From UHGV virus genome UHGV-0363627: a DNA stretch of 64,000 nucleotides, one strand, 5' to 3'. Source of the DNA: a virus. Under the pieces are notes generated by a model, which saw only the letters and a list, made by a program, of their open reading frames with translations, was not told where the DNA came from and did no database searches. The position numbers were made by a program, and so were the translations under genes. Position 1 is the stretch's first letter. Each line of letters begins with the position of its first letter. Shown here piece after piece: positions 2,873 to 60,908 of the stretch.

Positions 2873-2892
2873 ATTTCCCTACGGGCAAGCTA
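2873..2892 (+). repeat. 21-bp repeat family copy 1 (CATTTCCCTACGGGCAAGCTA), intergenic
   Basis: Immediately after the stop of 2409..2870. Confidence 0.7.
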
Positions 2893-3074
2893 CAACTATT
2901 AGTAGTGATAATAATATAATTGCTATTGTTGCTGATGATGATTTTCTCGATTGGCTGACTATGGTTTTATTCCGATTGACATACAAAATTATATCGAACA
3001 TCAACGTAGAGGGCATTTTTTGGCTCTCTGTTCGATTTTGTATATCGTTATGATGTAAATATCACGATTTGGAT

Positions 3075-3099
3075 AAAGTCCGTCAGACAGTCTGAAAAT
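3075..3099 (+). promoter_or_regulatory. conserved intergenic motif AAAGTCCGTCAGACAGTCTGAAAAT (copy A), ~45 nt upstream of the 3141 ORF
   Basis: Same core as 20324-20348 and, on the other strand, 59079-59091 and 49552-49564. It contains the palindrome TCAGAC-a-GTCTGA. Confidence 0.45.
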
Positions 3100-3140
3100 G
3101 CGTCAGCGATAGTAGCAATTATTTTTATTTTATAATAATA

Positions 3141-3923
3141 TTGATAATGATGTTATTAATGTTGTTAATGATGGTTAATGACATGATGTTATTCGTTATC
3201 AATAATAGTTTTGTGATAAACTTAATACATGATGATATGGCAACTTTAAATCAATTAATTAGTGAAATAGCTCATGCTGTTGGTCAGCCTAATAATGTAC
3301 CTTTAAGGCGTAATATTCGTCAAGCTATTATTCATACTCGTAATGAATTAATACGAAAAAGTTATGGTAATAATAGAGTAATAGATAAAGGTCTAGAACA
3401 AAGATTTAGAATAGAAATTATAGATGTTCCAGATGGAGATATTTATGAAAGTGGTGAATTATTAATTCCTGCTATTAAACGTAGTAAGAATAAAGTACCT
3501 ACTCCTGTTAGATTAACAAATGGCATGCCTTTTTTATCTGTTAGAACTGTTGGATATGGTAATAGAAGTATATCGTTTGCAAAAGAAGCTACTGCTAAAT
3601 TTTATCATCTTTTAGCTGGTTTTTGTAAAACTCCTGTTTATGATTATGTTAATGGTTATATTTATATATACGGAGATAATGATAGTATAAGAAATGCTGA
3701 AAATATTATTATTGAAAGTGTATTTGAATATCCACATTTGATACAAACAGAAACAATAGATGTTGAAGGAAATTATATAAAAGATAATGATGAATTAGAT
3801 GATAATGAATTTCTTCTTCCTGAAGATATGATTGGTAGTATTAAAGATGTTATATTTAAACGCAATATGCTTCAAGTTCCTAGAGAAACAAATGAAACAC
3901 CTGTAGATAATTTAATTAAATAA
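3141..3923 (+). CDS. hypothetical protein; true start probably the internal ATG near 3238 (MATLNQLI...)
   Basis: Long ORF. The first ~30 codons (MIMMLLMLLMM...) lie in low-complexity ATG/TTA-rich DNA and are probably 5' leader rather than protein. Confidence 0.5.
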   Translation: MIMMLLMLLMMVNDMMLFVINNSFVINLIHDDMATLNQLISEIAHAVGQPNNVPLRRNIRQAIIHTRNELIRKSYGNNRVIDKGLEQRFRIEIIDVPDGDIYESGELLIPAIKRSKNKVPTPVRLTNGMPFLSVRTVGYGNRSISFAKEATAKFYHLLAGFCKTPVYDYVNGYIYIYGDNDSIRNAENIIIESVFEYPHLIQTETIDVEGNYIKDNDELDDNEFLLPEDMIGSIKDVIFKRNMLQVPRETNETPVDNLIK

Positions 3924-3928
3924 TAATT

Positions 3929-4891
3929 ATGAAAGTAGAAATAGATTTGCAACATTTTTATACTAAGTTTCAAAGTGAAACTAATGATGTTAAAACAAAA
4001 GTCGAACAAGAATTAAAACTAGCTTTAGAAGTAAAAAATAGACATGAAGAAATTGTCTTTTCTAAAAAAGATTATATAAAGAAAACTTTTGATATTAATC
4101 TTGATGATTATCCAGAAATAAAAGATGGAATATTAAATAAAGAATTACGATTAGAAGTTATACAATTAATGCGTCATGGAGAAGCATATAATTCTAATAG
4201 TAGTGTTTTATATAATTTGAATGTATATCTTAATGATGTAAAAAGAGTTCATATATTATTAAAGAAAAAAGCATTGCTTGATAAAAGAGCAAATTTAAGT
4301 TTTGCTGAATATAAAAGAATTGTTTATAATTATTATAGATATGGAGTTCATAAATGTTTATTAGAAGGATATATGTATTCTTTTGCTGATGAAAAGATTG
4401 AATTTCTTATTAATAGATATAAAACTGACGGTTGTAAGAAAGATAAAAGAATGGCAGACCTTAAAGCTACTAAAACTAAATTAGATGAAATTCGTGCTAA
4501 AGGTTTGATTCCTTATAATAAAGAAGATGCTGAAATAGCAAAATTACATGGCGTTAAATATAATGGTGTTAAATATATTACTTATAGAAGAGATAATTAT
4601 TATTATAAATTAGAAATGACACTTCGATATGCTGGTCGAAAAGTTAGTACAGAATTTGAACGTATTAAAACTATAAACGCTAATTTACGTGGAATGACAC
4701 AAGAAGAGATTGCTGATAAATGTAAAAACAAAGAAGAAATATATGCACTTAATTGTGATATAACGCATAAATTAGGAATATTGCTTAAACATGATAAGAT
4801 GTCTTATTTAAACTTTATACGAAATGCCGAACAAGACAAATTTACCAATGGAGTCTATAATCGCAAAAATAGACAACGATTTCAATCCTGA
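3929..4891 (+). CDS. hypothetical K/E/Y-rich protein (320 aa)
   Basis: Intact ORF starting 6 nt after the previous stop in the virion block. Confidence 0.5.
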   Translation: MKVEIDLQHFYTKFQSETNDVKTKVEQELKLALEVKNRHEEIVFSKKDYIKKTFDINLDDYPEIKDGILNKELRLEVIQLMRHGEAYNSNSSVLYNLNVYLNDVKRVHILLKKKALLDKRANLSFAEYKRIVYNYYRYGVHKCLLEGYMYSFADEKIEFLINRYKTDGCKKDKRMADLKATKTKLDEIRAKGLIPYNKEDAEIAKLHGVKYNGVKYITYRRDNYYYKLEMTLRYAGRKVSTEFERIKTINANLRGMTQEEIADKCKNKEEIYALNCDITHKLGILLKHDKMSYLNFIRNAEQDKFTNGVYNRKNRQRFQS

Positions 4892-5645
4892 TAATAGTGA
4901 TTGGGTTAATAGAGTTCCTGCATGGTGTGTTGATGCTATGCAACAATTAAAAATATTATCTGTTGTTAAGAAGAAACGAAAACTTAATGTTAATAATAGA
5001 ATAGCATATAGTTCTTGTAATATAATTAATAATGAATTAAAAGTTTATGATAAAAGAGGATGTGCTATTACCAATATAGATGATAAAGTTGATTGTGGAT
5101 GTCAATCCTCTACGGGCAAGCTACAATTAGATAATGAAGATTTATCAGATACTATGTCTATAGTTGCTGGAATGTCAGATGTTAATTATGGAGAAAGTAT
5201 TTCTATTCATAATAATGAAGATGATATTAATAAAAGAAATATAACATTTGACCGCTATATCTTGCCCGTAGAGGAAAGAAACTATATATTAGTAGACGCT
5301 AATCATATTGAATTAAATTTTGATACTGATTATATTTATATAGAAAATCTTGAAGTTGAAACTCAATATAGTGAATATTTTCAAGAAGAAATTCCTGTTA
5401 TTCCAAACGATGGAAATCTTATAGAAGCACTTGCTTATTATTGTATGTATAAGATGCTATGTCGTGGTATGAAACATCCTGTATTTAATCTTAATGCTAG
5501 TCAATATGGTACTAATCCTTATTATATGTGGATGCAGTTAAAGAGTAAAGCCAGAGCTAGTGTTATTAATACAATACAAGGAAATATTGATACTAAAGAA
5601 TGGCAGAATTATTTTTATAATTATACATTTAAACCTAGAGGATAA
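4824..5645 (+). CDS. hypothetical virion protein (273 aa); carries an inverted pair of the 21-bp repeat in frame
   Basis: ORF overlaps the upstream gene by 68 nt. It contains SSTGKL (5107-5122) and LPVEE (5260-5276) encoded by repeat copies. Confidence 0.5.
   Translation: MPNKTNLPMESIIAKIDNDFNPDNSDWVNRVPAWCVDAMQQLKILSVVKKKRKLNVNNRIAYSSCNIINNELKVYDKRGCAITNIDDKVDCGCQSSTGKLQLDNEDLSDTMSIVAGMSDVNYGESISIHNNEDDINKRNITFDRYILPVEERNYILVDANHIELNFDTDYIYIENLEVETQYSEYFQEEIPVIPNDGNLIEALAYYCMYKMLCRGMKHPVFNLNASQYGTNPYYMWMQLKSKARASVINTIQGNIDTKEWQNYFYNYTFKPRG
5107..5122 (+). repeat. 21-bp repeat copy 2, in CDS (encodes SSTGKL)
   Basis: caatCCTCTACGGGCAAGCTaca. Confidence 0.7.
5260..5276 (-). repeat. 21-bp repeat copy 3, inverted partner 137 bp from copy 2, in CDS (encodes LPVEE)
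   Basis: tCTTGCCCGTAGAGGaa. Confidence 0.7.
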
Positions 5646-9885: not shown

Positions 9886-11721
9886 ATGAGAAAGAATAAA
9901 ATTGTAAGACCGATTAATAGTAATAGCACTCTTACACCTAATATTGTTCGTGGCGGTAAAGCTATTGATTTAGGTAATAATATGTATTATATTACTGGAC
10001 GTAAACATACTAATGGTGGAGTTGATGTTGGAAAAGATTTAGAAGTTGAAGGTGGAGAAGTAATGCAGATGAAGCCTGATGAAGTAAGAGTGTTTAGTTC
10101 TGTTCCTTTCCTACGGGCAAGCTCTCCAGCACAATTAGTTCTTGGTGGTGCTAATCCTGATATTGTGTTTAATGCACAAGAAAATTTTAAAGATAAAAAT
10201 CGTATTAAAGATGATGGTACGAAATATAAAAATGGCGGCAATATGATAGCAACAATTAATGGTAATGTAAAAAATGGGCTTATCCACACTATGAGATGTG
10301 GCGATAGAAAGAAAGCTAAAGTTGGTACAGGTTTTAGAATAAATAATGATAAATATAAAATCGGAGATACTTTTGATTATAAAGAGCAAAAATATTATGT
10401 AAACGCAAGAAATGAAGCTGTACCTGTTTCAGCTGATTTATCTAAAGCTAATCCTTATGGTATTACAAATGCTATCAAAGCTGTTGATTGGTTAAAAACT
10501 CAAGAAAAATATATTCCTGACACAATTACTATATCAAATAAAGCTACAAGCAAACCTGCAAATAATACATCTGATACAAATACAATTAGTATTCCACAAT
10601 TAAATGTTGGTAATATTGGAACATATTTTTATAATCCTAAAACTACATCAACTGCTGCCAAAAGAACTGTTGGTTCAAATGCAAAATCGACTAATAATTT
10701 AGTCAAATCAATAGCTGATAATACTTCTTTAGCTGTTCCTTATACTCAACCTGATAAAATTTCTATTCCTAGATATACAAAAGATGTTTATAAAAGACCT
10801 TCTTTAGCTAGCATGGCAAAAGAAATAGAAGATGTTGATACAATTAATTTAGCAAGACAATATACAAAACCAAGTAGATTTAATAGATTTACTGATTGGT
10901 TTAATAACAATCTTGATAAAATTAATTTATATACTAATTTAGGAGGAAGTGCTATTGATTTTATTAGTAGTGCTATTATAAATAGTAAAATGCCGACTGT
11001 TGATTTACCAACAATGACTGCTCCTACTTTAGCTAATCTTCCTGAAATTCAACTTGCTGAAATAAAAGATTTGGAAGCTCCTGCTACTGTTGCCGCTGCT
11101 AAACTTAAAACTCGATATAATGTTAATCCTCAATTATCTAAAATTGAAGATGAAACTAGAAGAACTATGAATGAAATTGATAGAAATACTTCTAGTAGTA
11201 GAGTTGCATTAGCTAGAAAACAACGTGCCGCTATTCAATCGCAAGAAGCTAAAAATCAAGTTTATGGTCAGAAAGAAAATATTGAAACAGAATTGATGAA
11301 TAAAGATAGATTAAATACTCAGCAAGTTGCACAAGCTAATGCTGCTACTTATAATCAATTCTTAACAGCAAGAGCACAACAAGCAATGCAGAAAGCACAG
11401 TTGAAGATGATGGTTGATAGAGCTAATATTGGTAATAAACTTGCAGTAGACCAATTTAATGCAAATGCTAAGATGGCTACTGATAGATTTAATGCTGATA
11501 ACTTGATTAAAGAAATATTATTTAATACAAATGTTAGAACTAATCAATTAGGAAATTATGCAGCTGGTATTGGAAATCTGTTTAGTAATATTGGCGGAAG
11601 TCTTAATAATTATATGATAAATAGAAATGCTAGATTGCGTGATGAAGAAATGTTGCGTTCCCTACGGGCAAGATACAAAGAGATACCACAAGAAATAATA
11701 GATTATATATTAAATAAATAA
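9886..11721 (+). CDS. virion/cargo protein (611 aa)
   Basis: Long ORF with Q/A-rich coiled-coil C-terminal half. It contains two repeat copies in the LRAS frame (10108, 11658). Confidence 0.55.
   Translation: MRKNKIVRPINSNSTLTPNIVRGGKAIDLGNNMYYITGRKHTNGGVDVGKDLEVEGGEVMQMKPDEVRVFSSVPFLRASSPAQLVLGGANPDIVFNAQENFKDKNRIKDDGTKYKNGGNMIATINGNVKNGLIHTMRCGDRKKAKVGTGFRINNDKYKIGDTFDYKEQKYYVNARNEAVPVSADLSKANPYGITNAIKAVDWLKTQEKYIPDTITISNKATSKPANNTSDTNTISIPQLNVGNIGTYFYNPKTTSTAAKRTVGSNAKSTNNLVKSIADNTSLAVPYTQPDKISIPRYTKDVYKRPSLASMAKEIEDVDTINLARQYTKPSRFNRFTDWFNNNLDKINLYTNLGGSAIDFISSAIINSKMPTVDLPTMTAPTLANLPEIQLAEIKDLEAPATVAAAKLKTRYNVNPQLSKIEDETRRTMNEIDRNTSSSRVALARKQRAAIQSQEAKNQVYGQKENIETELMNKDRLNTQQVAQANAATYNQFLTARAQQAMQKAQLKMMVDRANIGNKLAVDQFNANAKMATDRFNADNLIKEILFNTNVRTNQLGNYAAGIGNLFSNIGGSLNNYMINRNARLRDEEMLRSLRARYKEIPQEIIDYILNK
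10108..10123 (+). repeat. 21-bp repeat copy 4 (TTCCTACGGGCAAGCT), in CDS frame LRAS
   Basis: PFLRASS. Confidence 0.65.
11658..11672 (+). repeat. 21-bp repeat copy 5, variant (..GGGCAAGAT), in CDS frame SLRAR
   Basis: gttCCCTACGGGCAAGat. Confidence 0.55.
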
Positions 11722-14376: not shown

Positions 14377-17300
14377 ATGAACATAATAGATATTATCAAA
14401 GGTAAAGATAAAAGACCTAATCCAGAATATAATCCTAAAACTAAAAAGGGGGCTTTAGAGCCTCCTTCTATTGTTAATACAGATTATAATAAACGCGATG
14501 ACTTTGCATCCAATATATTAGAAAATGTTATACCTAATCAATATGGACTTAGTTATTTAGGTGACCCAACTAAATATGCTGAATACGATGTAACTGTTAA
14601 TCCTGTTAATACAAAAGAAGAATTAGATAAAGAACGTGCTAATAATCAATCTGTATTTGAACAAGGAATGTATTCTATTGGTCAAACATTGAATGAAATA
14701 ACAACAGGAACTATATTAGGTGCTGCTGATTTAGCTTCTATATTAATAGATGTAATGGATGGAGATTTATCTTATGAAAGACCTGATATTATTCAATCAT
14801 TAGCTGATTTTAAAGAATCTATTAATGAGCAAATGCCGATATATAGAGAAGACCCAACTAAAGCATTTGATGTTACTGATTTTGCATGGTGGGCTAGTAA
14901 TGCTCCAAGTATAGCTAGTAGTTTAACTTTAATGCTTCCTGGTGTTGGTGTTAGTAAAGGATTATCTAAAGTTGGTAGTTTGCTTAATATAAATAAAGCT
15001 AGTAATAAATTAGCAAATGTATTGAAATTATCAGAGAAAACTAGAGAACTTGCAGCTAAAGGTATAGATGCTACTAAAACTGGTATTACAATGCGTATGT
15101 TGGAAAACTATCAAGAATCTAATCAAACTAGTAAAAATGCTTATGACTATGCTATTAAAGAACTTAATAGTATGGATGCTAAGCAACGTGCTGAATTTGA
15201 TAAAAATAATCCAGAATATGCAAATAAAACAAATGAAGAAATAGCAAAAGATATAGCAAATAATGCAGGAGATGAAGCATTTGATTTTAATCTATGGAAT
15301 ACTATGTTTGATATAGCACAAGTATATGGATTAAAGAATATGTGGTCGAAAGCATTACAAGGTAGTAATACTAGAAGATTACAAAAACTTAACAAAGCTG
15401 CTGCTGCAAAATTTGGTGATGAAGCTGCTGTTATACAAGAAGCAATAGCTAAAACTACTTTTAAAGATAAAGCAATAGATAAAATAAAAGACATTGGTTA
15501 TGGTATCGCAACAGGTACTCGTAACGAATGGACAGAAGGTATAGAAGAAGTTATAAACTATATCGGTAGTGAAAAAGGTATGGAATTAGCTAAACTTGCT
15601 TTTGATAAAGACACTGATGTTAAGACTGTTAAAGATTATCTTAAAGACCCGATGATGTGGGAGTCAGCTTTTTGGGGCGTTATTGGTGGTGTAGTATTTA
15701 GTGGTGCTGCTGATGCTGCTGGTGAATTTATTCAAAGAAAACTAAATAAAGAATGGACAAATGCTGAAGATAAAAAGAAACAAGAAATACTAAATAGACA
15801 ATTACATTTCCAAAGATACAATGAAGCTATTAATAGCATTAATCAAAATAAAAATCCTTATATAACAATTAAAGATGCGGAAGGAAATCAAGTCGCTGCT
15901 GATATTACCAATGATACAGAACGTCAAGAACTAGAAAAACTTGCTCGTGATTCTTATTTTGATGGAATGATAATAGATGCTATTGATAATGGCAATCTTG
16001 AATTATTGGAAGAATTTGCTAGAGATGAAAATATAACAAAAGGATTTAAAGAAAAACTTAATCTTAAAGATAATGAAGCACTAGAATTACAAAAGCAGTT
16101 TATTGAAAGACTTGATAATACAAAAGAATTATATTTGAATGTATTTGATAAAGTAAATAAAGTTGGTGGCAATTTTGATATTAGTCGTATTATAGCAAGA
16201 CAATTAGTAGAAGAAAATAATAAAAAACAATTATATGATACATTGAAATTATATAATGATAATTTATATAACAAAGTAATGGCTGATGATAATATAAATA
16301 TTAGTCAAGAAGATATTTCTGCTATTGAAAAACTTGTTTATAGAAATAGAATACGTGCTATTGAAAATAAACTATTTAATATAAGAACTGATGCTAATTT
16401 ATCAAAAAGAGAAAAGAAACAATTACTAGATGAATTAGAAAATCAAAAGAAACAATTAGAAGAAATACAACCAGCTGGTTTATATGATGAAAATGGTGTT
16501 GTAAACGACAAACAAATAATTGATACTGCAAAGAAAGTTCGTGATAATTATTCTGATGAATTTAATACTATATATGGAAAGTTTGATAATGACTTGAATT
16601 ATAGATTGAATGAAAAGAGTGTTGATTTGACAGAGCCAGCTTTAAAGAAAAGAGTAATAGAACTTAGAAATGTTCTTGATGAAAGTAGAAGAAAAATTAT
16701 AAATAATGCTATTAAAACTCAAAATGATTTATATAGAAAATATAGAGATAATTTTGATGTTGCTAATATGGAAGAAAAAGATGTAGATGCTTATAATACA
16801 TCTTTGAAAGTTTTACAAGAAGCTGAATATGATTTAAATAATCTTGAATTACAAAGAGAGTTTATTGATGAAGAGTTAGATAGACAAGCTGCTTATGAAG
16901 AAACTGTAGATAAAAATGATGATGTACCAGAGTTAGAGGGCAAGCCTGTTGATGATGATGGCATCTCCTCTACGGGCAAGCTAGAAGGAGATATAACAAC
17001 TGATACATCAAAAACTCCTGAAGTTGCTACGACACCTGAAGTTGCTCCAGTTGCTACAGATACTAAAGATGATAATGCTAGCGGTAGCTTGCCCGTAGAG
17101 GATAATGCTACTACAGCTACAGCCGAGCCAACTCTTAATCTTGCTGAATTAAGTGAAAATGAATTATATGATGCTGCTGCTGAAGAATTATATAATCAAC
17201 TAGATAGTATTGCTGCTACAACTAATGTTAATATTGATGAATTGAATGATGATGAATTTGCTCAATTTGCTAATAACAATAAAGAAGCAATATTGACTAA

Positions 17301-20435: not shown

Positions 20436-23400
20436 ATGAGTTGTTCTAATCTCACACTTAACAATTATCCTAAACTTCGTTCTTATATTGAGAACAATGT
20501 TGCTGTTGGTACACAACTTTATAATGATTATCTAGCTACAGTTGGTACTGCTGAATTTCAAAATGCTTTAGATAAAAGAGGTATTAATGCTAAAACTTCT
20601 CCTAAACAAGCATTTGAAGTATTGAAAGAAGTTTATAATACTAAAACAAAAAATTTGCAATCTTTGCAAGAAGGTATTGCTAAACATCAAACAGGAAGAT
20701 TTACTAGTAAACTTGCTAAAATAGAAGCATTAGATTTTATTGCTAGTAATATTAGTAAAGTTTATTCAAATGATAAATTTAATGCTACTAATAAATATAA
20801 ATTATTAGGTGATATTATAAATGATTTTAAATCAACATTGATAAGATTTATCGAATTTAATGTTAGAAAAGAAATAAATAATAATGATGAGTTAAAAGAA
20901 GAATATAATAAACTTCTTACTGAAACATCAAGAACTATTGCATTAAAGAATATTATTGAAAAACTAGATAATAATATTCTTCGTAATCAACTTGCTGCAT
21001 TTGAAAGTCTTTCTGATAAAACATTTATCGAAGAATTAAAAATGAAGCGAGATGTTGCTGCATTATATGGTCAAATTGATTTAGAATTTGAAGCTGTTGA
21101 AGATGAAAATAAAGGCAATCAAGAAGAGGAAGGAAGTAATACAGAAGATGTAGATACTGTTGATGATATGTCTAAATCATGGGAATTAAATATTGGTGAG
21201 AAGAGTGATTTTAAAGAACATATAGAAGAAGTTGTTAAATATAAACTTAATAGTATCCCAAAACTTTCTTCTATTGATTATACATTAGATAAAAAAGGTA
21301 ATCCTGTTTATCAATATGATAGAGGTGCTGAAGCTGGATTCATTCAATTTATGGATGGACAATATCTTGCAGGAGTGTTATTTACAGAAACCGATAAAAG
21401 TAGTGTAGATAATTTTGTAAACTCTATTGCAGATATTGCTAGACGTAAATCAAATTTAAAAGGCCTTATAACATTATATAATGATTTAAAAGCAGATAAA
21501 AATCTTGCTTATAAATTTATGATGGTGTTTGATAAACCTGTTATACCTAAAGTAGAAACTTATTATGATTATCAAGGTGGTTATCAAGTAAGAATTAGTA
21601 ATACTTCTTCTAATCCTACAGAAATAGTTGTAAATGATATTAAATTAGGTATTAAAAATGCTGATGAAACTACATTACAAAAGTTTAATATTGATATAAA
21701 AAATGCGACTGTTGAAAATGTACATGAAGCATTAAAACTAATAATACCAAATATTGATTATCAATCATTACAAAATATGGCTGATAATTATAAAGATGAA
21801 TATAAATCTTTATTGTATAATATTGCAACTATTGGTAAAATTATTTCTGATACTATTGATAATAAGAATGATTATATTGAAAAACTATCAAAAGGTGAAG
21901 ATGTATCAGATTTAAATAATTTTATTCCTGATAGTTATTTGCCGTTTATATATGAATTTAGTAATAAGATTACTCCTTATGCTAATGTTAAAGTCAATCT
22001 TAATAGCAGAAATGGTGCTAATAATTTAAGTTCTGATGTTATTAATAGAAGTTATCTTACTAATTTTCCTTTGATATTTAGTAGTGAAGAAGCTGTTGAA
22101 GCATATGCTAGACAAAAGTTTGCTGGAAGTGGATATAATTATAGTAATATATTAATAGAGTGTGTATCCTCTACGGGCAAGCTACAGCCAGGTCTTTTTA
22201 GAAAAGTTGGTGATGTTTATAAACTTACTGAATATGCAAATGAATTAGTTAAAATATCTCTTGTTAATGGTTCTGCCGATAGACGTACAAATACAGCTGT
22301 ATTATATAAAGATATGTCTAAAGGAGATTATCTATTAACAGGACTGATGAACTATATAAAGAATGAAGAAAAAGCTGTAGTTATAAATGGTCAAGAACAT
22401 AAATTTGCTACTGCTAATTTCTTTATGAGTATTCCTTCTGATGCTCCTAAAACTTTTGTTGCTACTATGCCTATATTGTCATTAGATGGTCTTTATAAAT
22501 ATAATGAAGAACAATATAATAGATTTAGACAAGAAGCGACAAATAAAGTAAATGCTTTAAATGTAATAGATTTAAAAGATGAAAAATATACAGATTGGCT
22601 GACTAATAAATTAAATATAATTAGTTCAAAAAGTCTTGTTGATTTGATTAATGAAGAAAAAATTAATGTTCCTGTTGATGTAAATAAATATTATAAAGTT
22701 GGAAATAATCCTCCTAGTTTTGCTTTTGTTGATAAACATGGAGCAAAATATGCTATTACAGGACAATTAAAAGAAATTAATGGACAATTCTATTTGACAA
22801 ATGCTATTATTAAAGGTTTAATTAGTGACGGTCGAGTTACTAAAACTCAAGTAAATAATAGTAAACTTGCTTATATTAATAATCAAATATATTTATTGCA
22901 ACGTCAAAACATTGGTATTGAATTTGATATTAATCATCCAGTAGTTGATGCTTTAAGAAATATTATTTATCAAGAAATTCTTGATGCTTATACTTCTGCT
23001 AGAAGAATATTTAAAGAAGATGCTAATGGTAATCTTATAATGTCAGAAGGACAACTTGTTCTTAAAGATAATTATAATGCAAATGAATTATATTTGAATT
23101 ATGAAAAAGATAGAGGCGGAAAAGTTTATGATATAGTTGATGGAAAATATGTTCTAACAGGAGCTGTATTTAATCTATCGGATTTGAATAGTAAATTTGC
23201 TAATGTTTCTCTTTATCATAATCTTATGGGTAATGGCAAAGTTATTGATATATTGTATGGTGATAGAGAAAAACGAGTAAGAGTAGAAAATGGTAAAGTT
23301 GTATTTGATGCAAATTATCAATCTATTGTAGATAATGCAATCAATGAAGCTATTAAAACTTATCTTGATACTTATCTTAAAAATGCTACAAATTATCTTC

Positions 23401-33458: not shown

Positions 33459-33472
33459 TATCTCGCTGAAAC

Positions 33473-41975: not shown

Positions 41976-42407
41976 TCATCGTATTTTATAAATAATACAA
42001 TCAGGATTTTCTCTTTCTTGAACTAATTTTACATCTATATTAGTATCTTGTGTTATATCATAAAATATATCTTTAGTATAAATTTTATATCCACCTGTAT
42101 AATCTCTAACTAACGGAATAGCATTATTAACTTTATCTTTATAAAGACAAACATAATAACTTCGTTCATTAGTTTCAGCATCATATTTATGTAATATCTG
42201 ATATGATTTAGCTTTATAATCAGTAAATATAATTATACTTTGAAAGAATACTGAATAATAACTTTTATTTCTATCAAATACTTTATTAGATATAACTTCA
42301 AATTCAAGATTAATATCTCCTGTTATCTTCTGTGTAGGTTTAGCCGTCTTGACATTCCCTACGGGCAAGCTACGTTTTACAAAATTAAATCTTACATTTT
42401 TTACCAT
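41976..42407 (-). CDS. hypothetical protein (143 aa)
   Basis: ORF whose N-terminus contains a repeat copy (RSLPVGNV). Confidence 0.45.
   Translation of the reverse strand: MVKNVRFNFVKRSLPVGNVKTAKPTQKITGDINLEFEVISNKVFDRNKSYYSVFFQSIIIFTDYKAKSYQILHKYDAETNERSYYVCLYKDKVNNAIPLVRDYTGGYKIYTKDIFYDITQDTNIDVKLVQERENPDCIIYKIR
42353..42372 (+). repeat. 21-bp repeat copy 18, in CDS 41976..42407 (RSLPVGN)
   Basis: CATTCCCTACGGGCAAGCTA. Confidence 0.7.
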
Positions 42408-44514: not shown

Positions 44515-45646
44515 CTTCTTGTATATAATTTATTACATTTTTAAATAAATTGTCAATAACTTGTATAGAGTAATTTTGTCTTAATTCAGCAAAATCTTTA
44601 CATTCATATTCTTTAGGAATAAGTATAGGAGTAATATTGAATTCCTTCTTTAAATATATAGCTTCTTTTTTACCAGTCATATCATTATCCATAAGACTGA
44701 TAATATTATATCTATCTTTTATATTATTAAGAAGATATTCATATTCTCTATCTTTTAATTTATAACTTTCACATGGAATATTAATTAAGCCTATTGTAGC
44801 TTGCCCGTAGAGGAATGATGACATAGTAGTCTTGTTTAAATAGCTTTTTAAAGCAAGCCTATCTTTAGTAGATTTAGTTATAACTATATAATCATATTTA
44901 TCATTTGTATTAAAATTAAGAACGCCTTCAATATGATTACAATTAGTAATAAATCTAACATCACCTTTCTTACGATTAGGAAAATAAAGTTTAATATTAT
45001 ATATTCCATGTTTATCTTGTCCTAATATATAACCATAACATAAATCTTTTTTATTATGATAATATTTAGGTTCAGGATTAATATTACGATTAATATAAAA
45101 TTGGTCAATAGGATAAACAAAATTAGTATTAAGCAGACTAATATCTATATCAAATTGTTTCCAATAATTTATATCATAATCTTCCCAATTACGAATTACA
45201 AGTTCTATAACATTTTTTCTATTACGAATATTATTAATACCTATATTTATTTCATTATCTAAATTTTCATCCTTTTCTGTTCCATAAAAAATATCTTTAA
45301 AAGTTCTCATTATATGTTTAAGAACTTTCATAAAATCATTTTTATTATTTATATCAATATGTGTATTATACGCATTACTTATTACATAAGCGGCAACATC
45401 AAAACAATCACCCCAAAACATTTCATTACCAAAATCTCTAAACTTTAATTTGTTTTTATTATTGTAACGAAAACCAGCAGAAGGATGAATATCTACTCGT
45501 AAAGGATTGCTTATTAAAGTTCCATTATTAATACAATCTTTTATAATATCTTCTGATATATTTAAATATTTGCTGAATATCTTAATTTGACTAACTTTAG
45601 AGAGTACATAATCTTTACTTATTGTACCATTATTTATGTTTCTCAT
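44459..45646 (-). CDS. putative DNA primase (TOPRIM-like) with C-terminal ...TLPF tail
   Basis: YDYIVITKSTKDRLAL ... ISLMDNDMTGKKEA resembles the TOPRIM DxD...G motif. It sits in the replication block, and its C-terminus ends in LPF like the SSB tail. Confidence 0.35.
   Translation of the reverse strand: MRNINNGTISKDYVLSKVSQIKIFSKYLNISEDIIKDCINNGTLISNPLRVDIHPSAGFRYNNKNKLKFRDFGNEMFWGDCFDVAAYVISNAYNTHIDINNKNDFMKVLKHIMRTFKDIFYGTEKDENLDNEINIGINNIRNRKNVIELVIRNWEDYDINYWKQFDIDISLLNTNFVYPIDQFYINRNINPEPKYYHNKKDLCYGYILGQDKHGIYNIKLYFPNRKKGDVRFITNCNHIEGVLNFNTNDKYDYIVITKSTKDRLALKSYLNKTTMSSFLYGQATIGLINIPCESYKLKDREYEYLLNNIKDRYNIISLMDNDMTGKKEAIYLKKEFNITPILIPKEYECKDFAELRQNYSIQVIDNLFKNVINYIQEDENIEIDWNTEESNTLPF
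44797..44817 (-). repeat. 21-bp repeat copy 19, in primase-like CDS (FLYGQA)
   Basis: TAGCTTGCCCGTAGAGGAATG, exact consensus. Confidence 0.7.
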
Positions 45647-45647: not shown

Positions 45648-46289
45648 TCAAATTATACCTAATCTTTTTAAATGATATTTAGCTATTATTTCTGCTTGTT
45701 CTTTTTCTTTATATCTACCAAAATAATATTTTTTATTTTTATATATAAATTCTACTCGCCAAAGTTTTTCCGTATTATTAAAATAAATACCTTTAGGATT
45801 AACAAAATTATTTCTATTATGACTATTTAAAGAATAAGTTGTTTCTCTTAAATTACATTTTCTATTATCAAATTTATTTTGATTTATATGGTCTATTATA
45901 GTATTATTACATTTTTTCGGTAGTATGAGTTGATGTAATAATATTTGTTTATTATTTTTATAAGTAACAACATATCCAGCACTAGTTATAGTCCATCTAT
46001 AATGTTCACATTTGCTTACATCTTCAATATCAATTATAGCTTTATTTATTATATTATTTTTTTTATCTGTTATTAATATTTCTGCATAATTATCATATAT
46101 ATTTATTTTACTATAATCATTAGATGTTTGAACTATGCATCCATGCCGTTTCATTTGTAAATAATGTCTATTACATAATCCTTTATATTTGACAGGATTA
46201 TTACAACCTTCTACAGAACAACATTTAATCATATCAATAATATTTATATTAATAAAAAAATGGCTAGAACTAATTAAAGTCCTAGCCAT
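45648..46289 (-). CDS. free-standing HNH homing-type endonuclease with AP2 DNA-binding domain
   Basis: CSVEGCNNPVKYKGLCNRHY and IDHINQNKFDNRKCNLRETT form an HNH zinc-finger/catalytic motif. C-terminal WRVEFIYKNKKYYFGRYKEKEQAEIIAKYHLKRLG is AP2-like. Confidence 0.65.
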   Translation of the reverse strand: MARTLISSSHFFININIIDMIKCCSVEGCNNPVKYKGLCNRHYLQMKRHGCIVQTSNDYSKINIYDNYAEILITDKKNNIINKAIIDIEDVSKCEHYRWTITSAGYVVTYKNNKQILLHQLILPKKCNNTIIDHINQNKFDNRKCNLRETTYSLNSHNRNNFVNPKGIYFNNTEKLWRVEFIYKNKKYYFGRYKEKEQAEIIAKYHLKRLGII

Positions 46290-49307: not shown

Positions 49308-50678
49308 TTATTCTGAACTACCAAAACTTTGAACATAATATTTTTCATTCTCTGTAATATTTTTTATTTCATGATTTTCATTAATAGGTTTTAGTCTACT
49401 ACAATCATTTTCTTCATTTGTACCTATCATATATAATTTATAGATTTTTATTTTATCAGTATTAAAAGTAAGTTTATTATATCTATATAGAAACTCTTTT
49501 ATATTATAGCAGTTTGGCGACATGAATATAATCGCATTACACGTAATTTCTAGACTGTCTGACGAACAATTTTTAATGGATAATACTCTAATATTGTTTG
49601 AGTTGAAAGATTGCACAGAAAGGCTGGAAATGGCTTGTGCGGCGAAGTTTTTTACTTCTCCTTTTCGATTACCAGTCTTATATCTTATAAAATCTCCAAC
49701 ATTTTCATCATAAACAGGTCTAGCTTCAATATCATTATGAAATTCACCACATGATATATTATTTTTATTAAGAGTTTTATAAACTTCTGTTGCAAGAATA
49801 GTATTCTTACTAACTATTATTACTTTCTTATCTTTTAATTCTCCATTTAATAAATCTATAACTATAGGTATCTTATTTACATTATTATTTACTAAATTAT
49901 TACGTTCACGAAAAATATTATAAGCAGTAGAACATCTTTCTTCTATACTAATAGGATTAAATAAATCATCTATTTGCTTATTAAAAGGTATAGTTACATC
50001 AAGATGTTCATTCCAACCATTATATTGAGCAATAGATAATCTTACAGCTTCAGCAGATTGACCTGTAGTTTTATCTCCTACTCTAGCACGATTTATATTT
50101 TCAAGACTACCAAATATATTAATAGTTTTATTTATATAATCACTATATTTATCATATAATTCTTTTTCATCCTGTCTAGCAAATTGTACTCCAATGTGAA
50201 TTTCCTCTACGGGCAAGCTATATTTAGCTGCATATTTGGCAGCATAATCAGCTTGATTTAATATAGGAAAATATTTATAAAGATAAGCACGAGAATCAGG
50301 ATGAATTTTATCTGTTGTTATAATAAATAGTCCATATTTAATTATACTATTAATATAATTTGCTTGATACATATCAGTTAATCCAACATAAAAAGCTATA
50401 TCATAATTATAATGTACACCTATTTTTACATAAACAGAAGTAATACAAGCATAATTATTAGAACTTACATTGTTTTCTTTTAAATAATTCACAATACTAG
50501 TTCTAACATCATAATCTTTAACTACAATAAGAGCTTTTATATTTGGATTTTTCTCTATACTTCTTTTCATTATATATTCTATTAGTATAGCAGGATTATA
50601 AGGTTCAAGAAGTATACAACAACCTTTACATTTATTTTCTCTCCATTTATTTGCTATATCAATATATGTTTTATTCAT
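49308..50678 (-). CDS. hypothetical replication-block protein (456 aa); C-terminal part crosses an anomalous GC-rich segment (49520-49680)
   Basis: ORF that contains a repeat copy (SLPVEE). Confidence 0.45.
   Translation of the reverse strand: MNKTYIDIANKWRENKCKGCCILLEPYNPAILIEYIMKRSIEKNPNIKALIVVKDYDVRTSIVNYLKENNVSSNNYACITSVYVKIGVHYNYDIAFYVGLTDMYQANYINSIIKYGLFIITTDKIHPDSRAYLYKYFPILNQADYAAKYAAKYSLPVEEIHIGVQFARQDEKELYDKYSDYINKTINIFGSLENINRARVGDKTTGQSAEAVRLSIAQYNGWNEHLDVTIPFNKQIDDLFNPISIEERCSTAYNIFRERNNLVNNNVNKIPIVIDLLNGELKDKKVIIVSKNTILATEVYKTLNKNNISCGEFHNDIEARPVYDENVGDFIRYKTGNRKGEVKNFAAQAISSLSVQSFNSNNIRVLSIKNCSSDSLEITCNAIIFMSPNCYNIKEFLYRYNKLTFNTDKIKIYKLYMIGTNEENDCSRLKPINENHEIKNITENEKYYVQSFGSSE
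50204..50220 (+). repeat. 21-bp repeat copy 20, in CDS 49308..50678 (SLPVEE)
   Basis: Direct read. Confidence 0.7.
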
Positions 50679-52032: not shown

Positions 52033-53301
52033 ACTTATGTCAAAATGATAAATTGTAAAAGCATTATCTCTTTGTAGCTTGCCCGTAGAGGAATTGCTAG
52101 ATATATCCCATTCAGTAGTACTCCATATTTCCATTGGTCTATCTTTACTATGAAGTCCACCTGTAGCTAGAGTATAATTAACATCACCAATAATAACTTC
52201 TTTCTCAAAAGCATCTTTGCTAACTCTATATAATGTAGTCTTTTTTATTTCTTTAAGTAGTTCTTGTAACTGTGGAGTTTTAAATTCAACACAATCAAAT
52301 ATAATCTTACCTAAATTCATAGCAGTTCTTTTAGTTCTTCCATCTTTCCATTTCTCATATGGAATACCACTATATTTAGTATAAAACTTTTGAAATAAAA
52401 CATTAGCCATATTACTACGACTACTATTAAGAACATCTACTTTATAAGAAGCAGAAACAGCATATCGAGATTTAATTTCATTAGGATTAAGACGAACAAT
52501 TTCACAAACAATAAATACATCATTTTTATTATAATGCATCATATCTGGAATATATTCATCTATTATATATCTATCCCATTTATCAATTACATTGGTGAGC
52601 TTTTTATAATCATAACCTTTATATCTTGTATCTTTTGCATAATAGTGATAATCTTTATCACATATATCAGGTAATTCGTATTCAAGAAGTTCATACCATT
52701 GTAGATTTATACTAGTTTGTTTTAAGCCTTTTGGAATATATTTCTTTTCTCCAGTTTTACTATCAACAATAGTTCCAGCTTTATTCAAAGCAAACACTTT
52801 CATTACATCTACACCTTTAAACGGCAATGGATATTTTCTTAAACTTCTTAATAGAAAATCATTTTTAGCACCATCTTTATTATCTTGTAATTCAATTATC
52901 TTTTTTGATGTTTCATAAAGCCTTGTAATAAGTTCTTTTGTAGTATCTGTTTGACCAAAATACATTAATAAAGCAGCAATCATAAGATTATCATAGCTTT
53001 GACTATTATAACCATATAAATCACTACGAGGATAAAGTTCATTAGCTTTAAATCCATTAATATATTCAACCATTGAGAATAATTGACTATCATCTGTATC
53101 TGTAATATAAAATTGTTTACATTTTACAACATCAAGTCTTTGTAATAATTCTTTAACAGATATTTTTTGAACAATAGGAATTGCTTTTCCTTTACTATCT
53201 ACAACATCTTTAAAAGTATCAAGATAACTAGCTAAATCAATAAATGTTATCGAAAAAAAGTTAGGAAGTACTTCCACATCATAACATTCTATTCTTATCA
53301 T
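52033..53301 (-). CDS. family B DNA polymerase, exon 1 (exonuclease domain to start of motif A)
   Basis: YDVEV matches Exo I, YNSQSYDNLMI Exo II and YNKNDVF Exo III. It ends ..YHFDIS at motif A (D-x-x-S-x-Y..), completed by exon 2. Confidence 0.6.
52075..52095 (-). repeat. 21-bp repeat copy 21, in polB exon 1 (SSTGKL), 43 nt from the intron junction
   Basis: TAGCTTGCCCGTAGAGGAATtg. Confidence 0.7.
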
Positions 53302-57381: not shown

Positions 57382-57672
57382 TTATCTCTTATATTGTTTC
57401 TTACTATTAGTCATTATAGCTTGTTTCATAGTACGTTTGTTTTCCGTTCTATCCTCTACGGGCAAGCTATCCTGAACTTCAACCACTTCATCATTTGTCA
57501 TAATTCTTGTATATCCTTTATAATTACATAAGTAATCAATTTTTCCAGATATAGAATTACTCATTCTCACACCTTTACTAATTCTAACAGTTTTGTCATT
57601 AGTTACAATTTTAATTCCATTAATTGCTTTCAGTGCTTTGATAACACTTACTTCATCATAATTTTTTGCCAT
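57382..57672 (-). CDS. hypothetical protein (96 aa); contains a repeat copy in frame (SLPVED)
   Basis: ORF. Confidence 0.45.
   Translation of the reverse strand: MAKNYDEVSVIKALKAINGIKIVTNDKTVRISKGVRMSNSISGKIDYLCNYKGYTRIMTNDEVVEVQDSLPVEDRTENKRTMKQAIMTNSKKQYKR
57453..57468 (+). repeat. 21-bp repeat copy 22, in CDS 57382..57672 (SLPVED)
   Basis: Direct read. Confidence 0.7.
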
Positions 57673-57746
57673 ACTTTACATAAGTTTTAAATTAAACAAT
57701 AATATTAATAAAAGCAGAAGCAACACTAGTTACTTCTGCTACAAAA

Positions 57747-57765
57747 TCTCCCCCGTAGAGGAATG
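57747..57765 (-). repeat. 21-bp repeat copy 23, variant (TCTCCCCCGTAGAGGAATG), intergenic
   Basis: Direct read. Confidence 0.55.
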
Positions 57766-57770: not shown

Positions 57771-58067
57771 CTAATCAACCAACTCTAGTCCTAACATCTC
57801 TGCAACAACATTATACTGTTCTTTTTCAAAATCTTCATCTTCTTCATAATGTTCAGCATCTTTAATAAATTCTTCATAACATTCTTTACAAAATGCCATA
57901 TTAAGAACAGCTATAAAATATATAATCTCATTATCATCTTCAATAAGTTTATTACATTGGTCACAAATAAGTTTATTACCATAACCAAACTTACATTTAT
58001 TTCTTGCTTCATCTAAAGTCAATTCTATAATAAGAAATCCTTTTTCATTTTCTATCTTTTTTACCAT
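57771..58067 (-). CDS. small Cys-containing protein (98 aa; CDQC...CKEC zinc-binding-like)
   Basis: ORF. Confidence 0.45.
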   Translation of the reverse strand: MVKKIENEKGFLIIELTLDEARNKCKFGYGNKLICDQCNKLIEDDNEIIYFIAVLNMAFCKECYEEFIKDAEHYEEDEDFEKEQYNVVAEMLGLELVD

Positions 58068-59597: not shown

Positions 59598-59702
59598 ATA
59601 CTGGTTACTAAAATAATTAACACAATGTATTTATGCAGTTGTAATAACTCCAAGACTATTATAAATAGTTTAGACTTCATTTATCTCATCAGTTGGAGTG
59701 CA

Positions 59703-59732
59703 ACTACTCCTACTTTCACAAGCAAGAGTAGT
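59703..59732 (-). ncRNA. hairpin with conserved 16-nt loop (family member 3)
   Basis: Stem actactc/gagtagt with loop ctactttcacaagcaa, identical to the loop at 35147-35162. No in-frame ATG covers it. Confidence 0.35.
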
Positions 59733-59765
59733 CTGTTTACTATGAAATTGCAGTTAAACATATAA

Positions 59766-60215
59766 TTATTTTTCAGATTTTCTTTTTTTTACAACAGCTT
59801 CAAGAATATCAGTCGGAATATCTTTAAATTTATCCATTAATTCATTAATATTATTATCAGCAATTTTATTAAATTCGCTTATGCTAACATTAATATTATG
59901 ACATAAAGACTTATTAATTTTTACAATAGTATTAATAGCATCATTGACAACGCAATTAACATATTCAATTTCATCTTTTGTCATATCTTTAGCTATTGTA
60001 GCTTGCCCGTAGAGGATTGACAGCAAATAAGCATAACTTAATGGACATTCTTGAGCTTTAACAACAGCTTCAAGAAAACCAGTTCTATCTTCATCATACT
60101 TTTTACAAAAATCTTCAATCCAAGCAATAGCATCTAAAAACTTTTCTTTATTAGTTTTAGCTATAACATCTTGCCCGTAGGGAATGTCAATCATAACAAC
60201 TTTCTTCATATTCAT
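59766..60215 (-). CDS. hypothetical protein (149 aa) carrying two direct copies of the 21-bp repeat in frame (LYGQA, PYGQD)
   Basis: ORF. Confidence 0.45.
   Translation of the reverse strand: MNMKKVVMIDIPYGQDVIAKTNKEKFLDAIAWIEDFCKKYDEDRTGFLEAVVKAQECPLSYAYLLSILYGQATIAKDMTKDEIEYVNCVVNDAINTIVKINKSLCHNINVSISEFNKIADNNINELMDKFKDIPTDILEAVVKKRKSEK
59999..60019 (-). repeat. 21-bp repeat copy 24, in CDS 59766..60215 (LYGQA)
   Basis: TAGCTTGCCCGTAGAGGAtTG. Confidence 0.7.
60169..60186 (-). repeat. 21-bp repeat copy 25, same CDS (PYGQD)
   Basis: TCTTGCCCGTAGGGAATG. Confidence 0.65.
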
Positions 60216-60363
60216 TTTATTTAATTATTAAAACCAAATGCATTATCTTCACTAACATAATCTTCATAAAGACTACCAACTTCTATTTCTGATATATCTT
60301 TATTAACAACATCAGAATCAATACTAATAGTATTTTCTTCTTTATCAACAGTTTCTACATATT

Positions 60364-60591
60364 CTATAGCCATAAATCAATATATTTAATAATACCACTT
60401 ATAGTAGCAAAAATTACAACAACGCTAATAACAAATGTTATAATATCAAATAGCTTAACACCTCGACCATATCGAATATCAGATACAATACAACATATAA
60501 CAAATACACTTATAATAAGCATAACTAGAATAGCAACAATAAGTGCACTTAATACAAAGAGATTTATTATATAAGTCATATTATTTGGCAT
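60364..60591 (-). CDS. small two-TM membrane protein (75 aa)
   Basis: Two hydrophobic segments (LFVLSALIVAILVMLIISVFVICCIV; ITFVISVVVIFATISGII). Confidence 0.45.
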   Translation of the reverse strand: MPNNMTYIINLFVLSALIVAILVMLIISVFVICCIVSDIRYGRGVKLFDIITFVISVVVIFATISGIIKYIDLWL

Positions 60592-60908
60592 TAATCCTCT
60601 ACGGGCAAGCTACGATTGACTTCTTTAGCAACAAATTCATCTAATAAAGCAGCAGTTCTATTACTAAATTCATCAAAAGCAGCAGTAAAACATTCAAGAA
60701 ATTGTTTATTACTATAACGATATTCTCGTTTAAGTCCATCTTTAATAATAATAAATCTATCTGCCAATAGAGATACATTTGCATCTTCACCAAAACATCT
60801 TTTCAGATATTCAATAGTAACACCTCTAACATTAGCATTATTTCTAACAACATTAGACAAAGCTAATACATGAGCTGGAGTTTCAGGTTTTTCTTTTTTC
60901 TGTTTCAT
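60591..60908 (-). CDS. hypothetical protein (105 aa); C-terminal SLPVED-stop encoded by a repeat copy
   Basis: ORF. Confidence 0.45.
   Translation of the reverse strand: MKQKKEKPETPAHVLALSNVVRNNANVRGVTIEYLKRCFGEDANVSLLADRFIIIKDGLKREYRYSNKQFLECFTAAFDEFSNRTAALLDEFVAKEVNRSLPVED
60596..60611 (+). repeat. 21-bp repeat copy 26, spanning the stop of 60591..60908 and start of 60364..60591 (SLPVED-stop)
   Basis: Direct read. Confidence 0.7.

Follow-up and report, generated by a model that had tools for sequence, protein, structure and literature searches.

The stretch of DNA analysed here (the window) comprises 64,000 nucleotides of the viral genome UHGV-0363627, shares synteny with crAss-like phages of the Intestiviridae, among them cr11_1 and Carjivirus communis, and carries a short word that recurs on both strands from end to end. 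It has + strand genes at positions 1-33458, including one for a 4340-aa virion RNA polymerase (RNAP), and - strand genes at positions 34221-64000. crAss-like phages are the most abundant human gut viruses, and their regulation, persistence and genome handling are poorly understood. Each copy of the word forms a GC-rich island in DNA of 27% GC. With up to three mismatches allowed, the 21-mer matched at 17 places in the window and at none in 100 shuffles, and its 13-mer core, CTCTACGGGCAAG, with up to two mismatches, matched at 25 places, compared to 0.22 expected and a shuffle maximum of 3, an enrichment of about 100-fold over shuffles. Besides these 25 there are two degenerate copies, each the partner of a listed copy (35374-35392(-) and 33509-33521(+)). 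These numbers bear out a sequence-only reading of this DNA, which had reported at least 26 dispersed copies in both orientations and proposed the count against shuffled sequence. We found the same copies in four independent IMG/VR contigs of 93-99% identity, wherever the region was comparable, and the core is also present in GenBank crAssphage genomes, which confirms that it is real and not an assembly artefact. The copies are listed below; fractions of relatives refer to 80 related metagenomic loci fetched around orthologues of the tail-tubular gene.

2872..2892 (+): copy, intergenic, beginning 2 nt past the stop of the open reading frame (ORF) 2409..2870
5103..5123 (+): copy in the tail-tubular (P22 gp4-like) gene, read as QSSTGKL; orthologous site in 70/80 relatives
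5258..5278 (-): copy antisense to the tail-tubular gene, ILPVEE; inverted partner of 5103; in 46/80 relatives, in two reading frames
10104..10124 (+): weaker copy TCCTACGGGCAAGCT, FLRAS; lineage-specific, no indel relative to orthologues
11655..11675 (+): copy, SLRAR, close to the 3' end of ORF 9886..11721
16963..16983 (+): copy in the gene for a 1975-aa protein, ISSTGKL; the pair position recurs in cr11_1 gp65
17085..17105 (-): copy antisense to the gene for the 1975-aa protein, SLPVED; inverted partner of 16963
22164..22184 (+): copy in the virion RNAP gene, VSSTGKL; specific to the window lineage, no indel
25805..25825 (-): copy antisense to the RNAP gene, SLPVEE; orthologous in cr11_1 and prototype crAssphage
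27255..27275 (+): copy in the RNAP gene, QSSTGKL; lineage-specific
28526..28546 (-): copy antisense to the RNAP gene, ILPVVE; lineage-specific
33469..33489 (-): copy just past the RNAP stop (33458); 5' arm of a terminator-like hairpin
33509..33521 (+): degenerate partner CTCCTTATGGGCA, 3' arm, TTTT next; departs from the consensus by two transitions, both of which retain G-U pairing
35243..35263 (-): intergenic; forms the left arm of hairpin 1, with a compensatory change in contig 3300045988_110116
35290..35310 (+): intergenic; forms the right arm of hairpin 1
35374..35392 (-): intergenic, degenerate, ATTCCCTACGGGGGAGCTA; forms the left arm of hairpin 2 and has the canonical CAAG form in contig 3300045988_098176
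35407..35427 (+): intergenic copy, right arm of hairpin 2
40938..40958 (-): copy, SLRAS, codons 9-16 of ORF 40571..40984
42352..42372 (+): antisense copy, SLPVG, codons 12-19 of ORF 41976..42407
44797..44817 (-): exact 21-mer in the DnaG-type primase gene, FLYGQAT; copy at or adjoining the orthologous position in cr11_1, crAssphage and crAss002
50200..50220 (+): copy antisense to the SNF2 ATPase gene, read as SLPVEE; orthologous sites in cr11_1, crAssphage and crAss002
52075..52095 (-): copy in the PolB gene piece, close to its 3' end, NSSTGKL; orthologous sites in cr11_1 and crAssphage
57449..57469 (+): antisense copy, SLPVED, ORF 57382..57672
57745..57765 (-): weaker copy CTCTACGGGGGAG, intergenic, directly past the stop of ORF 57771..58067
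59999..60019 (-): copy, ILYGQAT, ORF 59766..60215
60167..60187 (-): copy, IPYGQD, codons 10-17 of ORF 59766..60215
60592..60612 (+): antisense copy, SLPVED*, spanning the stop of ORF 60591..60908

When the copies were aligned with 50-nt flanks, only about 22 bp were conserved between them (consensus WTCC(T/C)CTACGGGCAAGCTAca), and the flanks themselves showed no conservation. Searches with Rfam and for tRNA gave no matches in the window, in the hairpin region at a permissive threshold, or in crAssphage, and a longer element was rejected on these two results. Among the 93-99% identical relatives, the core has diverged by 2.0% and the flanks by 4.5% (58 comparisons per position), with a footprint of low divergence from about -2 to +16 relative to the 13-mer. 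The signal is asymmetric and about 19-24 bp long: after an invariant box, (T)CCTCYACGGG, come 4-8 bases that are the same throughout each genome and vary from lineage to lineage; in the window and in crAssphage, these variable bases are followed by a CTAC(A) box.

Nineteen of the 25 copies lie inside ORFs, where they are read in three sense frames (SSTGKL in five copies, LRAS in three and (L/P)YGQ in three) and one antisense frame ((S/I)LPV(E/G/V) in eight, mostly SLPVE(E/D)); the remaining two antisense frames contain TAG. The host genes are those that had been named from the sequence, the virion RNAP gene (four copies), the gene for the 1975-aa protein (two), the PolB and primase genes and small ORFs, together with the SNF2 gene. 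The word brings rare codons into these genes: among the codons that this genome uses for each amino acid, ACG makes up 2.0% (Thr), TCC 1.4% (Ser), CCC 1.8% (Pro) and GGC 8% (Gly). The first tail-tubular site (5103) is in the same reading frame in all but one of the relatives that have it, and it carries each genome's own 3' bases, with K, G, E, D or N as the next residue. The second site (5258) is found in two reading frames, of an LPVEE type in 20 relatives and a PRRG type in 26. Tail-tubular homologues lacking the word have unrelated residues at that place, with no residue conservation. A motif at the protein level was rejected on the four frames, the rare codons, the two frames of the second site and the unconserved residues where the word is missing. 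Because the word is read in several frames, uses the rarest codons and switches frame at the second tail-tubular site, selection acts on the nucleotide word, even within essential genes; the sequence-only reading, which had argued from frame independence for selection on a DNA or RNA word and not on a peptide, was right on this point. Word segments deserve masking in analyses of protein evolution, as their SSTG or LPVEE residues are by-products of the DNA word.

In protein alignments with orthologues from distant relatives, no gap was seen at any lineage-specific copy; examples are VPFLRASS aligned to IPLLNGNS, VSSTGKL to TAANGDI or TLSNGKV, and LSLPVEER to ALPFVERL. Such alignments had been suggested, for RNAP, PolB and primase, as a check for 7-residue insertions. 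We also found no presence/absence polymorphism of copies among the 93-99% identical relatives where the region was comparable. These comparisons indicate that copies arise by point substitution, not by insertion.

A search of related genomes, also among the proposed checks, showed the core to be family-wide. The core CTCTACGGG is present in prototype crAssphage, cr11_1, crAss002 and about 75 of the 80 related loci, and it is followed by a genome-specific 3' dialect of 4-8 nt, which is CAAG in the window and GGGT, GGAG or GGAA elsewhere. Among the 80 loci there are at least 13 such dialects on one core, the groups being GGGT (33 loci), GGAA (8), CAAG (7) and GGAG (7), with GAGT, GGGC, CGGA, GGAT, GAAG and others. 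The complete reference genomes carry the following versions:

cr11_1: 30 copies, word WTCCTCTACGGGG(GGTCTC)
prototype crAssphage: 32 copies, word tCCATCCTC(T/C)ACGGGG(G/A)GT(CTACAC)
crAss002: about 29 copies, word CTCCT(T/C)TA(C/T)GGGGGAA

The main difference between the window and crAssphage words is four bases, CAAG or GRGT, between a common TCCTCYACGGG and CTACA. By inspection of the sequence alone, the site therefore reads as two direct half-sites 11 bp apart, TCTAC-N6-(G/T)CTAC (TCTAC/GCTAC). When a 30-mer of the crAssphage version was searched in 50,697 phage genomes, it matched crAss-like records only, at 13-17 places per complete genome. Both tail-tubular copies and those at 25805 (RNAP), 44797 (primase), 50200 (SNF2) and 52075 (PolB) lie at or next to orthologous positions in cr11_1 and crAssphage, and such sites, some of them also common to crAss002, keep their orientation across genera. 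The word is therefore the local dialect of a cis-acting DNA signal of Intestiviridae crAss-like phages, with about 25-32 copies per genome; this family-wide nature, by which the word is one dialect of a signal present also in prototype crAssphage, had been missed by the sequence-only reading. Because orthologous sites carry the dialect of their own genome, the word is ancient and persistent in position and changes in concert within genomes. The CAAG dialect is found in three lineages, namely the window group, contig 029825 and contigs 8348/22590; the RNAPs of the latter two are only 25-34% identical to that of the window, compared to 41-52% for cr11_1 and crAssphage, which use GRGT.

Some copies in the relatives have additional features. 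A subset of the crAssphage copies (6022, 28078, 28173, 44954, 58728, 93668 and 95865) and of the crAss002 copies (4210, 47840, 86213 and 89648) has an extra GC-rich tail of 25-40 nt with GCGNAGC-type mini-hairpins, and three of the tails end in ...GGGTC(C/T)AAGCTA or ...CAAGCTA, similar to the 3' dialect of the window. In the tail-tubular gene of crAssphage, the tail is a translated, in-frame, lineage-specific insertion that is fixed, with no presence/absence polymorphism between crAssphage strains at this site. The window has no such tails, and GCGNAGC occurs in it only once. In G-rich dialects, RNA of the motif strand (CCUC-UACG-GGGG or CUCC-like) is similar to the helix 14 hairpin of 16S rRNA, ACUCCUACGGGAGGC, in the EUB338 region; this does not hold for the window dialect, and the likeness is probably a coincidence. 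Outside the family, crAss001 (Steigviridae, MH675552.1) lacks the CTCTACGGG word; in it, CTTCTGGAG occurs 27 times, dispersed over both strands at roughly one copy per 3.9 kb. The commonest crAss001 10-mers (GC content of at least 0.4) containing CTTCTGGAG occur 12 times, compared to 4-5 times for the commonest 10-mer in shuffles, and the spacing of CTTCTGGAG is not significantly regular (coefficient of variation [CV] 0.71, P = 0.23). CTTCTGGAG may be the analogous signal of another crAss family.

Both strands are used about equally, with 13 + and 12 - copies in the window and similar proportions in three other genomes. The + - + - order that had been described along the RNAP gene is seen there; between neighbours in general, orientation alternates in 16 of 24 steps in the window alone (permutation p = 0.11) and in 76 of 112 steps over four genomes taken together (binomial p = 1e-4, the genomes sharing orthologous sites and so not being independent). 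Where two copies lie within 500 bp of each other, they are in nearly every case inverted. With close copies merged and a hard-core random model for comparison, gaps in the window were more even than expected (CV 0.50, P = 0.015) and the largest of them, 5.6 kb, was small (P = 0.002); the corresponding CVs were 0.47 in crAssphage (P = 0.0008), 0.52 in cr11_1 (P = 0.011) and 0.63 in crAss002 (P = 0.08). Seven window gaps measure 4.85-5.53 kb, and none is larger. When copies of the same orientation are considered, gaps reach up to 11.8 kb (a hand calculation from copy coordinates). Since the gap limit holds only when orientation is ignored, an orientation-independent reader acting on duplex DNA is indicated.

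The copies are also placed unevenly with respect to genes. Intergenic copies make up 24%, compared to 6.2% expected (p = 0.004), an enrichment of about fourfold that is similar in three reference genomes, and 13 of the 25 copies lie either between genes or no more than 75 nt from a gene boundary, compared to 21% expected (p = 0.0005). The tail-tubular pair flanks a hypervariable, indel-rich loop that has no counterpart in crAss001 gp43. In the tail-tubular gene of the window, 4824-5645 (+), this loop comprises approximately codons 94-152, exactly between the two copies, and it is short in crAss002 gp28. Taken together, the even spacing and the placement look like the result of selection for coverage at the least protein cost.

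Several copies are paired. The intergenic pairs 35243/35290 and 35374/35407 gave stems of 14-18 bp on folding, and the pair behind the RNAP stop gave a terminator-like fold with TTTT next to it, in which the changes of the degenerate partner are G-U-compatible transitions, so the hairpins that had been proposed at these places fold as claimed. In contig 110116, the left arm of hairpin 1 has changed from GCCCG to GCCTG and the right arm from ACGGG to ACAGG, a compensatory replacement of C-G by T-A. At this one intergenic pair, the change argues for selection on pairing, and with the G-U-compatible partner followed by TTTT, it suggests that the pairs are selected for pairing, as terminator-like or RNA 3'-end structures. 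Hairpin use explains neither the single copies nor the universality of one core. Inside genes, inverted pairs were found at 5103/5258 and 16963/17085, in line with the pairs about 100-140 bp apart that had been noted, and relatives tolerate a non-compensated T-to-C change in the first of them. The idea that such pairs bracket functional segments, as invertible in-frame cassettes, was rejected, as 4 of 5 segments acquire stop codons when inverted; what lies between paired copies is ordinary coding sequence that varies with the lineage. We also rejected a conserved hairpin within single copies (CCUC-UAC-GGGG), which is present in other dialects at -4.6 to -7.1 kcal/mol, whereas the window dialect reaches only -0.6 to -1.7 kcal/mol.

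The surroundings of the intergenic hairpins contain other structures and genes. Two strong hairpins resembling intrinsic terminators, with T-runs and not built from the motif, lie at 33588-33622 (-), with 16 pairs, in the convergent zone after the RNAP gene, and at 35140-35169 (-), with 13 pairs. Downstream of the double hairpin in the sense of transcription is a 238-aa ORF, 34221-34937 (-), which had no Pfam or PHROGs match and no homologue in cr11_1, crAssphage, crAss002 or crAss001 and is a lineage-specific gene. Immediately upstream of the motif hairpins in the same sense is a 63-aa ORF with a CxxC...CxxC zinc ribbon, 35465-35656 (-), with weak matches to the DUF2089 zinc ribbon and phrog_6504. 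In crAssphage, an intergenic inverted motif pair precedes each of the two RepL genes. A link of the hairpins to RepL or an origin was rejected; the adjoining 238-aa ORF is not RepL, and the association is loose outside crAssphage. The RepL-like ORFs of the window, 61533..62105 (-) and 62406..62996 (-), are adjacent to each other and resemble crAssphage gp43 and gp88, and the nearest copies are at 59999-60612.

We tentatively favour, at somewhat less than an even chance, the reading that the copies are recognised by a conserved DNA-binding factor, phage-encoded and sequence-specific, which requires coverage of the whole genome. Of the three hypotheses put forward in the sequence-only reading, its class of binding-site or uptake-sequence-like words fits best. 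One conserved phage protein would bind each copy on duplex DNA through two recognition modules, one constant and one fast-evolving. Its action would span only a few kilobases, so that a site would be needed at least every 5-6 kb, and it could serve in silencing, organising, loading or marking the genome. Because about 94% of the genome is coding, sites are written into genes, by point substitution where the protein tolerates it, with intergenic DNA, gene ends and variable loops as the places used, and purifying selection then holds them; close inverted pairs would additionally serve as hairpins, in terminator-like or RNA 3'-end structures. We infer that the reader is a protein, that it is phage-encoded and what its activity would be. 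A 17-mer scan of one genome each from 185,579 bacterial and archaeal species found 10 singleton chance matches in unrelated GC-rich taxa and no enriched genome, and on this basis a host-genome word was rejected. Since the word is not a host signal, and since crAss001 and crAss002 both infect Bacteroides and have different words, a phage-encoded reader is favoured. There is a precedent in a monomeric repressor with two DNA-binding domains whose asymmetric sites, more than 20 of them, are spread over a phage genome (PMC9283540). A promoter role is disfavoured by the equal strand use, by the location of copies inside late genes and by the early transcripts, which have no common upstream motif; the virion RNAP of crAss-like phages transcribes single-stranded DNA (bioRxiv 10.1101/2020.03.07.982082). 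We found no description of the word in open-access full text, with motifs given only in figures and many subscription papers beyond the reach of this search.

Several observations weigh against this reading. No reader protein was found, either in a scan of ten window ORFs against Pfam and PHROGs, which gave HNH, DUF932 and otherwise only weak matches and no repressor match, or by dialect tracking, in which no window protein was closer to the distant CAAG phages than to cr11_1 in the approximately half of those genomes that were compared; a specificity protein common to the CAAG lineages had no candidate in that half. The recurrence of CAAG in three lineages whose nearest relatives use other dialects has to be explained as well, as vertical co-evolution of protein and site needs ancestral retention or convergence. 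An orientation-blind site does not predict the alternation and the inversion of close pairs, which need a secondary cause, for example that direct repeats are avoided or that pairs are used as hairpins. In both arms, the change in contig 110116 disrupts the GGG core, which is invariant otherwise, and at hairpin 1 pairing outweighs the word.

A bolder version, which we consider rather unlikely, is that the word is a "self code" of the Intestiviridae, in which about 30 even copies of a bipartite word have their variable half rewritten across the genome whenever the reader changes. The recurrence of CAAG in three lineages and the homogeneity of the word within each genome leave room for an exchange of the reader's specificity module between phages. 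They also leave room for a nucleic-acid-templated process, with a guide or master copy such as the double hairpin at 35243-35427, that recognises and homogenises the sites. If true, a self code could let self DNA be told apart from non-self, or establish groups of immunity or incompatibility, within the most abundant phage family of the human gut.

Other processes could produce parts of this pattern. In one, a phage nickase would cut a single strand within the asymmetric word as a programmed nick, or the word would direct other site-specific DNA processing; we think this quite unlikely. The word does resemble the nick-associated 9-mer WACTRTGAC, which is 88% in coding sequence and conserved in 61 phages (PMC11780129), in being asymmetric, conserved and mostly within coding sequence, whatever the frame, and a DNA ligase is annotated in these phages. 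However, known nick motifs are one-stranded and uneven (PMC11780129), as opposed to 13 + and 12 - copies at regular spacing here, the conserved inverted pairs 26-210 bp apart would yield staggered double-strand breaks, and the only free-standing HNH gene near the region is dispensable. This gene, 45648..46289, had been proposed to encode an AP2-HNH endonuclease that recognises or nicks the word, a proposal that can hardly be correct. Its ORF matches the HNH endonucleases of phrog_99 (E = 3e-21), with Pfam HNH_3 falling below the cut-off, and encodes an HNH endonuclease, but it is precisely missing from contig 3300045988_098176 (93-95% identical; locus positions 1-5001 correspond to window 40646-45650, and 5003 onward to window 46251 onward), which keeps the copies, and the word family is present in crAssphage, cr11_1 and crAss002 with other HNH genes or none at that place. 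Located between the genes for primase and SSB, the ORF, 45648-46289 (-), behaves like a mobile gene that is free-standing. Pairing of RNA (or of single strands) would instead make stems of about 20 bp from sense and antisense copies, acting as terminators, stabilisers or RNase III-type sites for which the word is the preferred substrate. This accommodates the inversion of close pairs, the alternation in 76 of 112 steps, the compensatory change at hairpin 1, the G-U-compatible partner with its TTTT and the intergenic copies, whose starts lie no more than about 25 nt from the stop codon upstream of them; at about 20 bp, the conserved length matches two turns of an A-form helix, a length that relates to RNase III substrates. 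We nevertheless regard it as quite improbable: pairs would be free to drift apart, yet one core is invariant over all sites and genera, most copies are single and kilobases from any partner, cleaved stems inside essential ORFs would do harm, relatives have the uncompensated T-to-C change in the 5103/5258 pair, and the local mini-hairpin is lost in the window dialect.

A molecular drive of the uptake-sequence or Chi type, in which fragments bearing the word are preferentially preserved, recombined or packaged in mixed infections with no benefit per site, is in our view decidedly unlikely. It would be consistent with one site per few kilobases on both strands and in all tolerated frames, as in uptake signal sequences (USS) and DNA uptake sequences (DUS), with the enrichment in less constrained protein parts and intergenic DNA, where inverted pairs double as terminators, and with dialects that arise at homologous positions via point mutation; RecT and an exonuclease are encoded by these phages according to their annotations. 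Phages, though, are not known to have machinery of an uptake or Chi type that is specific for 12-20 nt, these phages carry a Gam-like nuclease inhibitor, the copies have no orientation polarity towards the genome ends, and the regular spacing with its sharp maximum gap suggests selection for coverage. Mosaic breakpoints relative to close relatives (34242/35053, 36844/37349, 45650/46251 and 55243/56484) miss the copies, and a placement of recombination breakpoints at copies was rejected, the mosaic boundaries lying elsewhere. The segments 34242-35053, 36844-37349 and 55243-56484 are replaced or unaligned in contig 3300045988_110116, which is elsewhere 98-99% identical, and represent small modules of a mosaic or accessory kind. 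That the word is a miniature 21-bp (7-codon) mobile element, or a scar of insertion, tolerated in proteins and akin to Rickettsia palindromic elements (RPE) or mitochondrial GC clusters, is very improbable; an element of this type was also among the earlier hypotheses. The GC-rich islands in a 27% GC genome, their presence in many unrelated genes and the GC-rich tails of some crAssphage and crAss002 copies, one of them an in-frame insertion in the tail-tubular gene, speak for it; against it, lineage-specific copies show no length change relative to orthologues, target-site duplications and a conserved internal sequence are lacking, presence/absence polymorphism is missing among the 93-99% identical relatives where the region was comparable, many sites are orthologous across genera, and the tails do not occur in the window.

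A signal that overrides coding in virion RNAP, PolB, primase and tail genes and is stable in position across genera signifies an important DNA-protein (or DNA-RNA) interaction. The 21-mer can be used as bait for the reader and for testing models of silencing or of phage-plasmid maintenance. The dialect may define immunity or incompatibility groups of co-circulating crAssphages, and it could serve as a compact genotyping marker.

Compared with known systems, the word is a genome-wide dispersed recognition word that is a member of no named family. Repetitive extragenic palindromic elements (REP/REPIN) and mitochondrial GC clusters are short, GC-rich dispersed words with GTAG/CTAC, often in inverted hairpin doublets, that are inserted outside genes and mobilised by RAYT transposases or other means. 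The phage word likewise forms GC islands in an AT-rich genome, but it is mostly intragenic, its copies arise through substitutions that leave the length unaltered, and the annotations contain no Y1/HUH transposase. It also differs from miniature inverted-repeat transposable elements and RPE, in that the copies are not insertions relative to empty sites and have no terminal inverted repeats around a conserved interior. Chi is an over-represented asymmetric word found about every 5 kb, within genes, and would be needed in both orientations to protect a linear genome; it is 5-8 nt long, host-specific and strongly skewed in orientation. The phage word, in contrast, is 19-24 nt long and differs between crAss001 and crAss002, phages of one host genus, and a Gam-like inhibitor is encoded.

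In pattern, the closest match is to the USS of Pasteurellaceae and the DUS of Neisseriaceae. These are short asymmetric words that occur about once per few kilobases, on both strands, in tolerated frames and in less constrained parts of proteins, with intergenic inverted pairs that serve as terminators and with dialects that arise at homologous positions via point mutation. The phage word shares the use of both strands, the intragenic frames, the point-mutation dialects at homologous positions and the terminator-like inverted pairs. It differs in that its carrier is a phage without uptake machinery and not a competent bacterium, in its greater length (an invariant box of 11-12 nt plus a dialect of 4-8 nt) and in its regular spacing with a sharp maximum gap. 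The over-representation in a host that marks USS and DUS was not seen in the 185,579 species genomes, and no ComP-type competence receptor is annotated in the syntenic reference genomes.

The nick-associated motifs of phages T5, phiKMV and tf/Rembedalsseter are likewise asymmetric, mostly coding, frame-blind and common to distant phages of one group. They are 9-19 nt long, lie on one strand and number 4-13 per genome, clustered in one region (PMC11780129), whereas the phage word uses both strands equally, has 25-32 copies per genome, and shows even spacing and conserved close inverted pairs. The best mechanistic precedent is the stoperators of Cluster A mycobacteriophages, which are read by an L5 gp71-type repressor. 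There, more than 20 asymmetric sites are bound by a monomer with two DNA-binding domains, an arrangement that lets specificities diverge between lineages (PMC9283540). Stoperators lie in promoters and short intergenic spaces, their orientation follows transcription and its reversal abolishes repression (PMC9283540); unlike them, about 75% of the copies of the phage word are inside genes (19 of 25), 15 are in sense and 11 in antisense orientation relative to the gene blocks (a hand count that includes 35374), and antisense sites such as 25805, 50200 and 5258 are conserved. Prototype crAssphage persists as a phage-plasmid, with weak expression of its phage genes (PMC10983915), and the number of copies, 25-27 in 64 kb and 29-32 per complete genome of the relatives, is comparable to that of the stoperators.

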